A stretch of DNA of 64,000 nucleotides from a virus: the IMG/VR virus record IMGVR_UViG_3300032224_000970, positions 32,001-96,000 of that record, one strand, 5' to 3'. Position numbers and translations under genes: made by a program. The notes below the pieces were generated by a model that saw nothing but the letters and a program-made list of their open reading frames with translations, was not told the origin of the DNA and did no database searches. This document shows positions 30,710 to 54,936 of the stretch, one piece after another. Every line of letters begins with the position of its first letter. Position 1 is the first letter of the stretch.

Positions 30710-32284
30710 ATGCAGATTTTTGGATTTGAGTTAAAGAGAAAAAAAGCTGGGTTGGATGTAGGGAGTGTTGTAACTCCCTCATCCGACGATGGCTCTACAG
30801 TTGTAGCCAGTGCTAGTGCTTATTATGGCATGGTTATGGACGTCGAAGGTGTCGTTAAGAATGAGAATGATTTAATTCGCAGATATCGCGAGGCAGCACA
30901 ATATGCTGACTGTGATGCAGCTATTGAAGATATTGTTAACGAAACGATTGTTACTGATGGTAATGATCAACCAGTAAAAATTAATCTTGATAAACTAAAG
31001 GTTGGCGAACCTATCAAGAAAAAGATACGTGAAGAATTTGATAATGTCTTGAGACTTTATAATTTTGATTACAAAGGTCATGACATTTTCCGCTCATGGT
31101 ATATTGACGGACGTCTCTACTACCAAATTTTGATTGATGACAATAACCCAAAAGCAGGTATTGTCGAGATGCGTTACATTGATCCTCGCAAAATTCGTAG
31201 GATTAAAAATGTAACAAAGGAAAGAACTCCATCAGGTGTGGAGGTTATAAAGGCAATAGAAGAGTATTTCCTTTATAACGATAAAGGTATTATGGAGCAA
31301 ACAACGCAGGGTGTGAAACTACCGATTGATTCTGTAGTATTTTGCAACTCTGGTTTAATGGATGCTAATACTGGAATGACACTTTCTGCATTGCATAAAG
31401 CAATCAAACCAGTTAACCAGTTAAAGATGATTGAGGATGCGGTAGTTATCTATCGTATTTCACGTGCTCCAGAACGTAGAGTGTTCTACGTTGACGTAGG
31501 TAACCTTCCAAAGTTGAAGGCTGAGCAATACGTTAATGATATGATGAACAAGTTTAGAAATAAAATTGTTTATGATGCAGTAACTGGTGAAGTACGTGAC
31601 AATAAGAAGCATCTATCAATGATGGAAGACTTCTGGATGCCACGTCGTGAAGGTGGCAAAGGTACTGAGATTACTACACTTCCAGGTGGACAGAATTTAG
31701 GTGATATTCAAGATATCGAATATTTCCAAAGAAAATTATACATGGCATTAAACGTGCCTATCTCGAGAATGATTCCATCGCAAGGTTTTAGCCTTGGACG
31801 TACTCAAGAGATTACTCGAGATGAAATTAAGTTTAACAAGTTTATTGTAAGACAACGTAAAAAGTTTGCAGCACTGTTTTCACATACGTTGCGTGTTCAG
31901 CTGGCATTGAAAGGTATTATTCGTGCAGATGAGTGGGAAGATATGGAACACTACATCGAGTATGATTATAACCAAGACAATCACTTCACTGAATTAAAAG
32001 ATAATGAATTGATGCAGACTAGGGTTTCTATGCTGCAGTTAGTTGATCCTTATGTTGGTAAGTATTATTCATCTAAGTGGGTTCGTAAGAATATCCTACA
32101 ACAGACTGATGAAGATATGGCTGAGATGGATAAAGATATGGATCAAGATAGGAAGAATCAAGTTGAACAAGCAGATCATGAAGGAATGATAGCTGGTGTT
32201 ACACAAACTGCTCAGCAAAATTATTTGCAGCAAAATGCGCCACCAGAAACACAAGAAGCACCTACAAGTAAACAGGAGAAATAA
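30710..32284 (+). CDS. gp20: Portal protein gp20
   Basis: LHKAIKPVNQLKMIEDAVVIYRISRAPERRVFYVDVGNLPK; EDFWMPRREGGKGTEITTLPGG. Confidence 0.96.
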   Translation: MQIFGFELKRKKAGLDVGSVVTPSSDDGSTVVASASAYYGMVMDVEGVVKNENDLIRRYREAAQYADCDAAIEDIVNETIVTDGNDQPVKINLDKLKVGEPIKKKIREEFDNVLRLYNFDYKGHDIFRSWYIDGRLYYQILIDDNNPKAGIVEMRYIDPRKIRRIKNVTKERTPSGVEVIKAIEEYFLYNDKGIMEQTTQGVKLPIDSVVFCNSGLMDANTGMTLSALHKAIKPVNQLKMIEDAVVIYRISRAPERRVFYVDVGNLPKLKAEQYVNDMMNKFRNKIVYDAVTGEVRDNKKHLSMMEDFWMPRREGGKGTEITTLPGGQNLGDIQDIEYFQRKLYMALNVPISRMIPSQGFSLGRTQEITRDEIKFNKFIVRQRKKFAALFSHTLRVQLALKGIIRADEWEDMEHYIEYDYNQDNHFTELKDNELMQTRVSMLQLVDPYVGKYYSSKWVRKNILQQTDEDMAEMDKDMDQDRKNQVEQADHEGMIAGVTQTAQQNYLQQNAPPETQEAPTSKQEK

Positions 32285-53824: not shown

Positions 53825-54013
53825 ATGATTAAACTTGAATTGAGTGTAGATGACGTAAATATGATTCTTCGTACTTTAGGGAAACATCCCTTTGAAGAGG
53901 TTGTTAGACTTATCGAAAATATTAAATCACAGGGAGATCCTCAGGTTGAGGTTCTTGTGAAAAAGATGCAAGAAGAACAGGCAGCTGCACAAGCTGAGTT
54001 GCCACAAGTATAA
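53825..54013 (+). CDS. Small hypothetical protein
   Basis: 62 aa, AGGA SD; L...PFEEV..LI..IK.Q motif. Confidence 0.6.
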   Translation: MIKLELSVDDVNMILRTLGKHPFEEVVRLIENIKSQGDPQVEVLVKKMQEEQAAAQAELPQV

Positions 54014-54016
54014 ATA
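54009..54016 (+). promoter_or_regulatory. Late promoter, perfect T4 consensus TATAAATA
   Basis: Exact match upstream of a structured non-coding stretch. Confidence 0.75.
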
Positions 54017-54021
54017 GAATT

Positions 54022-54160
54022 GTCCCATCGGGATGGGAACGTATTGGCTTCACCTTAGGACCGCTAAGAAACGAAGCGTAATAAAGCGGATGCGACGTAC
54101 GGCATCGCTGGATCTCGTAACCAGCAAACCCTCTGTGCTCAATTTTGAGGCAGAGTTTAT
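54022..54160 (+). ncRNA. Candidate structured RNA (5' leader or sRNA)
   Basis: Five adjacent stems in an ORF-free, GC-enriched gap; see findings. Confidence 0.55.
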
Positions 54161-54190
54161 TTAATCAATCTCGCTTAATAGGAGAACTAT

Positions 54191-54415
54191 ATGTTACAAG
54201 CTATCAACACATCAATCGACACCATTTCTGGTGCAAAGACTCAATTCGTTAAGACATTCGTTCAAAACGAAGAAGTCAAAAAACAACTCCAAACTTACAT
54301 CGATGCTCAGCAGTCATTCGCTAAGACTGTTGCTAAGTCCACTGTAGATTTCTTTACTACAGTTGGTACATCAGCAACTTCGTTTGACACTAAAAAAGCA
54401 TTCGTATCTAAGTAA
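54191..54415 (+). CDS. Small amphipathic helical protein (possibly phasin-like)
   Basis: 74 aa, strong AGGAG SD. The family call is tentative. Confidence 0.55.
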   Translation: MLQAINTSIDTISGAKTQFVKTFVQNEEVKKQLQTYIDAQQSFAKTVAKSTVDFFTTVGTSATSFDTKKAFVSK

Positions 54416-54426
54416 GGAGAACAATC

Positions 54427-54936
54427 ATGGTCAGTAAATTTCTACCTGATGCTATGCTGCACCCACAATTCAAGGACTTCGAAAAGTTCTTTGTAGGGTT
54501 TGATGATCAATTCACACGTATGGCAAAGTTCCATGAGGATGTTACTAAGAACATTCCTAACTACCCACCATACAATATCAAGAAAAATGATGACAACCAT
54601 TACACCATTGAGATCGCTGTAGCTGGCTTTGGTCAGCAAGACATCGATATTGAAATGGCTGATGGTAAGTTAATCGTTCGTGGTAATGTGAAAACTGAAG
54701 AAGACCAAGACAACTTCTTGTTCAAAGGAATCGCAAATCGTGCCTTCACTCGTTCATTTGTTTTGAATGACGAAGTAGTAGTGAACGATGCTGAGATGCT
54801 CAACGGTATGTTGAAGATCTTCTTGGAACGTCTGATTCCAGAACACAAGCAACCAAAGAAAATCGCTATTAAATCCAAAGGTGAAAAACAACTATTAACC
54901 GAAGGAGAAAAAGATGCGATTGCTGAAACTTTGTAA
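54427..54936 (+). CDS. hsp20: Small heat-shock protein Hsp20 (IbpA-like)
   Basis: NYPPYNI; IEIAVAGF; KGIANRAFTRSF.L; NGMLKI.LER.IPE..QPKKI.I. Confidence 0.93.
   Translation: MVSKFLPDAMLHPQFKDFEKFFVGFDDQFTRMAKFHEDVTKNIPNYPPYNIKKNDDNHYTIEIAVAGFGQQDIDIEMADGKLIVRGNVKTEEDQDNFLFKGIANRAFTRSFVLNDEVVVNDAEMLNGMLKIFLERLIPEHKQPKKIAIKSKGEKQLLTEGEKDAIAETL

Follow-up and report, generated by a model that had tools for sequence, protein, structure and literature searches.

A conserved folded RNA precedes a small heat-shock operon in an uncultured T4-like phage and probably joins a ROSE-like hairpin pair to a pseudoknotted module

The gap between a 62-aa ORF and a 74-aa ORF in the genome of an uncultured T4-like phage is a real, conserved and folded non-coding RNA that precedes a small heat-shock operon. 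It lies in a window of 64,000 nucleotides, the whole stretch of DNA analysed here (positions 32,001 to 96,000 of IMG/VR virus record IMGVR_UViG_3300032224_000970), which belongs to a complete 159,683-bp genome with terminal repeats, and the gene order on the + strand is gp44, gp62 (clamp loader), regA, 62-aa ORF, gap, 74-aa ORF and hsp20. The RNA is probably a composite leader in which a ROSE-like translational hairpin pair (H4 and H5) is joined to an autonomous double-pseudoknot module (P1-P2-P3), both acting on their own mRNA.

The mechanism that we propose builds on the structure, conservation and context of the RNA and on the hallmark motif of ROSE elements that it carries. The gap would encode a ~168-nt untranslated leader of the (74-aa ORF)-hsp20 operon on the + strand, transcribed at least partly from a TATAAATA box, with the hairpin H0 at about the place where a T4-type late transcript starts. 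H5 would bury AGGAG against CUCGCU, leaving one bulged G, and so limit ribosome access to the first cistron; it would open as the temperature rises, or once a bound small heat-shock protein is titrated away, a route comparable to that of E. coli IbpA on its own leader, while the knotted domain would work independently of H4 and H5. If true, abundant lytic phages of oceans and lakes tune a chaperone post-transcriptionally to temperature or protein-folding stress through a conserved ROSE-type leader. The gene concerned, hsp20, counts among the core genes of T4-like cyanophages (PMC3037559), and a 2024 paper counted three phage RNA thermometers, namely lambda cIII, SPbeta blyA and a gut phage sigma-70 leader (PMC11182007). 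The upstream domain, with at least 120 instances in IMG/VR, clean covariation in two pseudoknots and no family match, is a well-defined structural target. A wider reading, which we put forward only tentatively, is that the double (possibly triple) pseudoknot represents a new functional RNA class of uncultured T4-like phages, a riboswitch-like sensor for a ligand or protein, or a nuclease-resistant knot, able to work alone as in the four loci that retain it in the absence of hsp20, and that ROSE-type thermometers are general for chaperone genes in lytic marine and freshwater phages.

A conserved, folded RNA between regA and hsp20

The regA gene is well supported (Pfam Translat_reg, 2.5e-47), and the closest cultured phages reach only ~79% nucleotide identity to the genome, over a piece of this gene (Synechococcus phage Bellamy); the identity of their Hsp20 proteins does not exceed 38%. 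psbA (Photo_RC), sought in the complete 159.7-kb genome, is absent, which makes a cyanophage improbable, even though the gene order is Kyanoviridae-like. Taken together, these values and the missing psbA point to an uncultured phage related to the T4-like group of cyano- and pelagiphages. The first cistron behind the gap, the 74-aa ORF, gave no match in Pfam and PHROG searches; its Atlas family is viral only, and among named Atlas clusters those closest to it are phasin-like (score 0.86), which we take as a lead and no more. hsp20 follows it in all 80 loci retrieved with the 74-aa ORF, and in the window starts 11 nt past its stop codon with a ribosome-binding site of its own.

To locate the RNA in this setting, the features discussed below are collected in Table 1.

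Table 1. Coordinates of the promoter box, RNA elements and genes in the window (RNA and promoter features are predictions from sequence)
Feature	Position	Strand	Details
T4-type late-promoter box TATAAATA	54009..54016	+	Exact match; overlaps the stop codon of the 62-aa ORF
H0, 5'-terminal hairpin	54023..54038	+	UCCCAU-CGGG-AUGGGA; in MFE fold; contains conserved GGGAUGGGA; optional module
P1	54047..54077	+	54048-51 with 54073-76, enclosing inner hairpin P1a (54054-58 with 54064-68)
PK1, pseudoknot	54077..54097	+	CGU 54077-79 with ACG 54095-97 in P2 loop
J1/2 strand, middle	54080..54085	+	AAUAAA; part of nearly invariant UAAAG; candidate PK3 partner of P1 loop
PK2, pseudoknot	54086..54118	+	GCG 54086-88 with CGU 54116-18 in P3 loop; encloses P2
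P2, hairpin	54089..54106	+	GAUGC/GCAUC; 54089-94 with 54100 and 54102-06; inner pair G54094-C54100; conserved G54101 bulged
P3, hairpin	54107..54125	+	GCUGG/CCAGC; 54107-11 with 54121-25; loop A-N3-5-GUAA
H4, stable hairpin	54131..54155	+	Core YGCC-loop-GGG with bulged G; followed by UUUAUUU
H5, hairpin over Shine-Dalgarno	54169..54185	+	UCUC-G-CU (54169-75) with AG-GAGA (54180-85); in MFE fold
74-aa ORF	54191..54415	+	First cistron 3' of leader
hsp20 (small heat-shock protein)	54427..54936	+	Second cistron; Pfam HSP20 2.9e-18, PHROG 432 5.6e-42

The initial annotation, made from the letters alone, had listed five stems in the gap (H0, P1, P2, P3 and H4), and all of them are present in the sequence and in the minimum free energy fold of the leader (-53.4 kcal/mol, z = -2.67, with 1 of 200 shuffles doing as well). 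A sixth hairpin, H5, lies inside the range that it gave and was missing from its list. A search of IMG/VR with the 74-aa ORF returned 80 loci with 56 distinct leaders, and the 140-180 nt upstream of the ORF are 70-87% identical in DNA among related loci. When 29 sequences of the window's own structural type (type A) were aligned with MAFFT, the RNAalifold consensus contained double changes in 10 of its 30 pairs, and a covariance model built from this alignment found exactly one match per locus and one in the whole 159.7-kb genome; across 0.79 Mb of related loci the copy number is likewise one per locus. A second comparison took in 49 distinct sequences, which fall into three structural types (A, B and C): 98.3% of cells were paired, against 79% in shuffled alignments and 35-54% with partners slid, and compensatory double changes occurred in 19 of 32 pairs. 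An independent set was then chosen solely by the DNA pattern ACCTTAGGACC-N35-60-GTAACCAG, which occurs in at least 120 IMG/VR stretches and yielded 94 further distinct sequences among the matches listed; these were 97.8% paired (30-51% with partners slid) and showed 18 compensatory pairs. Over more than 140 distinct sequences in total, compensation supports P1, P2, P3 and H4, four of the five listed stems, and H0 is conserved through an invariant GGGAUGGGA without clear covariation.

These comparisons also bear on the simplest account of the gap, namely that its stems are ordinary intergenic features, a terminator of the upstream operon plus chance hairpins. H0 and several stems of the window do match a consensus terminator scan (11 found against 2.7 expected), and the z-score of the window on its own is just -2.67. 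Nevertheless, at least 18 compensatory pairs, including two pseudoknots, in more than 140 distinct sequences, together with the presence of one copy per genome at a fixed place and a conservation that reaches cultured phages, make this account very improbable.

The conserved G.U pairs, found in PK2 in 93 of 94 sequences and in H4 in 57 (among the matches listed), would read C.A on the other strand and place the RNA on the + strand; along with the weaker fold of the minus strand (z = -1.99), they speak against an RNA transcribed in the opposite direction. A coding reading was rejected as well, since the 43-aa ORF at 54033-54164 is not conserved and the leaders of close relatives differ by 1-nt indels, which mark the region as non-coding. 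No known family accounts for the RNA: an Rfam scan of the whole window (Rfam 15, 4227 families) gave 0 matches at the gathering score, an 801-nt region searched at E <= 10 gave only spurious snoRNA matches, scans of eight related and three cultured loci gave nothing on the leader, and a tRNA/tmRNA search found none. The view that the gap holds an unassigned structured RNA on the + strand thus held up, as did its placement as a leader of the 74-aa ORF/hsp20 unit. In cultured S-CREM1 the interval from regA to hsp20 carries, on the opposite strand, an annotated glutamine (glnA) riboswitch (L085:233-331; Rfam 33.5 bits, just under the gathering score).

Among the matches listed, 110 loci were informative about context, and in all of them the element lies downstream of the regA region. 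The full leader stands directly before hsp20 in 72 and before the 74-aa ORF and then hsp20 in 34; in the remaining 4 (L140, L151, L166 and L189) the domain occurs alone, with no hsp20, H4 or H5 in the locus. In those 72 relatives the leader runs straight up to hsp20 with no 74-aa ORF in between, for which reason the ORF seems to be an insertion that separates hsp20 from the ROSE-like hairpin. As an observation on the same interval, a gene for a 23-aa PqqA precursor peptide lies between regA/orf62 and the leader in about 35 of the 80 related loci, outside the window (L001:2283-2351, L003:2292-2360, L068:2197-2265; Pfam PqqA 2.7e-10, NCBIfam TIGR02107 above cut-off). A PQQ precursor encoded by phages is a hint that their hosts use PQQ; in the source genome, a search run without a working control gave no match for the gene.

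The late promoter called perfect in the initial annotation stands in one respect, the exact match to TATAAATA, and falls short in another, as the motif occurs in only 2 copies in 64 kb, below chance. It is not enriched in the window, and the case for a promoter rests on position. The first hairpin begins 6 nt downstream of the box, in keeping with the placement of a T4-type late promoter, for which the start is expected a few bases downstream; roughly half of the related loci carry a (T/C)ATAAATA or CTAAATA box 5-6 nt upstream of their first hairpin, and the same spacing recurs in cultured S-CREM1, P-RSM6, S-CRM01, S-SSM5 and HTVC008M. In about 45 of 96 distinct relatives there is no promoter box in the ~165 nt upstream and the leader directly follows the upstream ORF, so the domain may not sit at the 5' end there; read-through transcripts probably carry the leader RNA as well. 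The conserved GGGAUGGGA of H0 recurs in 25 of the 96 distinct related leaders, and the register of H0 shifts between relatives, with no clean covariation found. A further optional module, outside the window, occurs between H0 and P1 or H4 in eight leaders (L009, L020, L063, L032, L066, L068, L016 and L101). It consists of a 5-bp hairpin of which a 6-7-nt loop segment pairs with the tail beyond an A-rich linker, and these loop/tail pairs co-vary (among them UUGAUGG/CCAUCAA, UGGUAG/CUACCA, UGGGGG/CCCCCA and AGUCGG/CCGACU); in topology the module is reminiscent of a preQ1-I-like H-type pseudoknot, and it has no Rfam match.

The hairpin pair H4-H5 over the first cistron

H4 corresponds to 'hairpin I' of the hsp20 leader and has six covarying pairs across 36 uncultured and cultured phages. 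The initial annotation had stated that no stem in the gap carries a U-tract; this does not apply to H4, the last of its stems, which is followed by UUUAUUU in the window and by a run of at least four U in 57 of 94 relatives among the matches listed. As an intrinsic terminator H4 is only weakly convincing, with a stem and this tail but no call in the consensus terminator scan. In seven cultured phages no U-tract was found after H4, the linker being A/C-rich, and for this reason we read it as the first hairpin of the leader rather than as a dedicated terminator. The frequent U-run makes it conceivable that some transcripts could end at H4 in the window's clade.

H5 places AGGAG (54180-84) opposite CUCGCU within a short hairpin with the loop UAAU, whereas the AUG at 54191 lies outside. 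In the predicted fold G54173 is bulged and stays unpaired from 10 to 45 C. In the window the hairpin covers the ribosome-binding site of the 74-aa ORF, not that of hsp20. Its stem is invariant among relatives apart from wobble-preserving changes, and covariation therefore cannot support the pairing; the conservation of the stem could reflect something other than pairing. The loop, on the other hand, varies in sequence and length (UAAU, GAAA, UAAA, UAAAUA, UAACUA). The window's H5 has six pairs, each of them Watson-Crick, and a predicted energy of -5.65 kcal/mol at 25 C; U.G pairs are present in some relatives. The predicted unpaired fraction of the Shine-Dalgarno sequence in the full leader rises from 0.20 to 0.34 between 10 and 45 C, a shallow response, and the predicted opening with temperature is uneven among phages. 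CUCGCU..AGGAG has only one genuine site in the 159.7-kb genome. A second CTYGCT..AGGAG site (G000:C1:7131-7147, minus strand, outside the window) was set aside as a chance match because it lies antisense inside a 306-aa ORF, which we take to be gp32-like.

ROSE-like thermometers are defined by a U(U/C)GCU anti-Shine-Dalgarno sequence and a bulged G in the 3' hairpin of small heat-shock leaders, and in short two-hairpin versions a stable first hairpin precedes the sensing hairpin (PMC3669281, PMC11342760). The phage leader is itself the 5' UTR of a unit with a small heat-shock gene, has its Shine-Dalgarno sequence in the 3' hairpin, carries UCGCU at 54171-75 and has a predicted bulged G. The 'thermosensor-like' label of the initial annotation thus fits, by way of a hairpin over the ribosome-binding site that it had not listed. 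The Rfam ROSE models RF00435, RF01832 and RF02523, searched singly, gave no match at the leader at E <= 10, and we therefore call it ROSE-like and not a member of ROSE.

The pair extends to cultured phages. A blastn search with the S-CREM1 leader returned 282 phage records, the best among the matches listed lying at or just before hsp20, and the leaders of seven of these records were inspected. In all seven (Bellamy, S-CREM1, S-SM2, P-RSM6, S-CRM01, S-SSM5 and Pelagibacter phage HTVC008M) H4 and H5 stand directly before hsp20; in five the pair sits 5 nt after a (C/T)ATAAATA box and in the other two a TATAAT-type box is present. The anti-Shine-Dalgarno sequence of S-CRM01 and HTVC008M is UUGCU. 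Searches of the cultured phages for the 74-aa ORF and for the P1-P2-P3 domain found neither. As part of the explanation that we favour as a whole, H4 and H5 are probably the ancestral hsp20 leader of T4-like cyano- and pelagiphages.

The knotted P1-P2-P3 domain

The domain of ~80 nt upstream of H4 matches no described RNA family in our searches, and its architecture emerges from the comparison of relatives. P1 includes a near-invariant ACCUUAGGA at 54052-60, and its outer pair alternates between A-U (51) and C-G (43) in 94 sequences among the matches listed. The inner stem CUUAG/CUAAG is found only in type A; types B and C present ACCUUA in the loop of a simple hairpin, the stem of which covaries (UCC/GGA, CCC/GGG, CUCU/GGAG). 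P2 has compensatory changes in 5 of its 6 pairs, the inner one occurring as G-C 19, U-A 13, A-U 10 and C-G 4 times, and P3, invariant within type A, covaries between types (GCUGG/CCAGC, CCUG/CAGG, CCAG/CUGG) and is 100% paired.

The two pseudoknots covary as well. In the 94 sequences among the matches listed PK1 is 100% paired, with C-G 85/U-A 9 at one position and U-A 86/C-G 8 at another. Its combinations among the sequences compared are CGU.ACG, UGU.ACA, UGC.GCA and CGC.GCG. PK2 is 99.6% paired in the same 94 sequences; in the set of 49 it takes the forms GCU.AGU (24), GCG.CGU (13), ACC.GGU (5), GCA.UGU (3), ACU.AGU (3) and GCC.GGU (1), and all four Watson-Crick pairs occur at its variable position. 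It follows from PK1 and PK2 that the loops of P2 and P3 both dock on one single strand, that between P1 and P2. The P1 loop may join them by pairing with the middle of this J1/2 strand (PK3): the candidate, ACCUUA or CCUUA with J1/2, is 5-7 bp long in types B and C, does not form in L067, and shows no covariation because the P1 loop does not vary. UAAAG in the strand is at least 97% conserved in type A. In this type an additional strand, CUAAG...GAA, pairs with ACCUUAG nearby, and two alternative states are conceivable. A different pseudoknot or switch had been proposed in the initial annotation, between CCGCT (54061-65) and AGCGG (54085-89); the two segments can pair in the window, but of their two variable positions one is unpaired in 15 of 28 relatives and the other in 11 of 28, with no compensation, and the proposal was dropped.

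The domain is also separable from its surroundings. The four stand-alone copies (L140:547-673 on the minus strand, L151, L166 and L189) lie a few bases after the regA stop codon and are followed by a terminator-like GUGGCA-UGAU-UGCCAC hairpin with a U-run, then by a sigma-70-like promoter and an unrelated gene that probably encodes a metallophosphoesterase. Conversely, six distinct leaders (L032, L036, L041, L066, L068 and L071) are without the domain and have H4 and H5 unchanged, with other compact modules in the same place. The spacer between P3 and H4 varies from 1 to 20 nt in the 94 relatives among the matches listed. Stand-alone copies, domain-less leaders and variable spacer argue that the domain is an autonomous, optional module of the regA-hsp20 intergenic region. 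A scan for covariation and for antiterminator or anti-anti-Shine-Dalgarno pairing between the domain and H4/H5 brought out no outstanding candidate, and CUCGCU versus AAAGCNG showed no covariation. On this evidence the module appears structurally uncoupled from the ROSE-like pair, which speaks against a classical riboswitch expression platform.

A covarying, aptamer-like and compact pseudoknotted fold in a 5' leader could nonetheless serve a new riboswitch as its aptamer, or be an operator that senses a protein; the bound ligand would then control H4 as a terminator or H5 as a mask of the Shine-Dalgarno sequence. Near-invariant unpaired nucleotides (UAAAG, the GACCR loop, the bulged G and A...AA in the P3 loop), a core kept constant through types A, B and C while the periphery changes, the U-run after H4 and the two states conceivable in type A, where CUAAG..GAA can lock ACCUUAG, would all agree with such a device. 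We consider it rather unlikely, given that no covarying alternative pairing joins the domain to H4/H5 across so variable a spacer, and that close relatives without the domain keep both hairpins, an arrangement intolerable for a terminator that needs an antiterminator. In addition, the H4 of cultured phages is without a U-tract, most of the conserved loop bases are already engaged in pseudoknots and the downstream genes point to no ligand; a mutually exclusive expression platform was not found in the leader, nor was any described class matched in Rfam 15.

The same stand-alone loci bring up another possibility, that the domain, with or without H0, is a stand-alone or UTR-derived small RNA, ending at H4 or at some other terminator, whose targets would be other molecules; it might, for instance, be a decoy that draws off an RNA-binding protein of host or phage. 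That four hsp20-less loci among the matches listed carry it alone and ahead of a terminator-like hairpin would suit this role, as would the U-rich tail common after H4 in the window's clade and a late-promoter box that can drive the domain directly. Even so, 106 of the 110 loci (among the matches listed) place the domain before the hsp20 unit on the same strand, and an exact complement of the P1 loop was sought elsewhere in the window and not found. Moreover, three of the four stand-alone copies (L140, L151 and L189, those inspected) have a C.A mismatch in P2 and could therefore be decaying remnants, which leaves the small RNA an unlikely explanation. The several GGA motifs prompted the idea of a CsrA-type sponge with GGA loops, to which we assign a low prior.

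Returning to the composite leader that we prefer, our best guess for the knotted domain, held with some reserve, is that a rigid fold close to the 5' end, or at it, would protect or insulate the leader. A role as a sensor for a ligand, a protein or temperature seems about as likely as this protective one, and an action on other molecules somewhat less so than either.

Comparison with known leader RNAs

T4-like phages use leader RNA structures for translational control; the mRNA of T4 gene 32 has a leader pseudoknot, and preQ1-I and SAM-II are H-type pseudoknot aptamers. In the phage domain, as in these three, hairpin loops pair with an adjacent single strand. It differs from them in that two, possibly three, loops converge on one strand, and the Rfam searches detected no similarity in sequence or model.

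At the level of data the nearest precedent is Fremin et al. 2023 (PMC10690425), who predicted structured RNAs from the viral metagenome contigs of IMG/VR, among them cis-regulatory candidates upstream of phage genes; hsp20 does not appear in its main text. A literature search turned up no paper that combines cyanophage, hsp20 and RNA thermometer, and none that describes this leader.

The closest counterparts of the hairpin pair are the two-hairpin ROSE-like thermometers of Pseudomonas ibpA (ROSE_3, RF02523; PMC3669281), which likewise occupy the 5' leader of a small heat-shock gene and place a stable GC-rich first hairpin before a short 3' hairpin. H5 further resembles ROSE-like elements (PMC11342760) in the pairing of the Shine-Dalgarno sequence to U(U/C)GCU, in the bulged G within this pairing and in an AUG that is left out of the hairpin. 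In contrast to ROSE, the phage leader belongs to a lytic T4-like phage and matches none of the three Rfam ROSE models, the pairs of the window's H5 are all Watson-Crick where ROSE has several non-canonical ones, the 74-aa ORF comes first and hsp20 second, and an extra pseudoknotted domain of ~80 nt lies upstream. Regulation by the chaperone itself offers a last parallel: IbpA is reported to bind its own 5' UTR, and E. coli ibpA to be repressed by IbpA itself (PMC10474464). Both E. coli ibpA and phage hsp20 have a structured leader of ROSE type, and a similar protein-titration route is conceivable for the phage.
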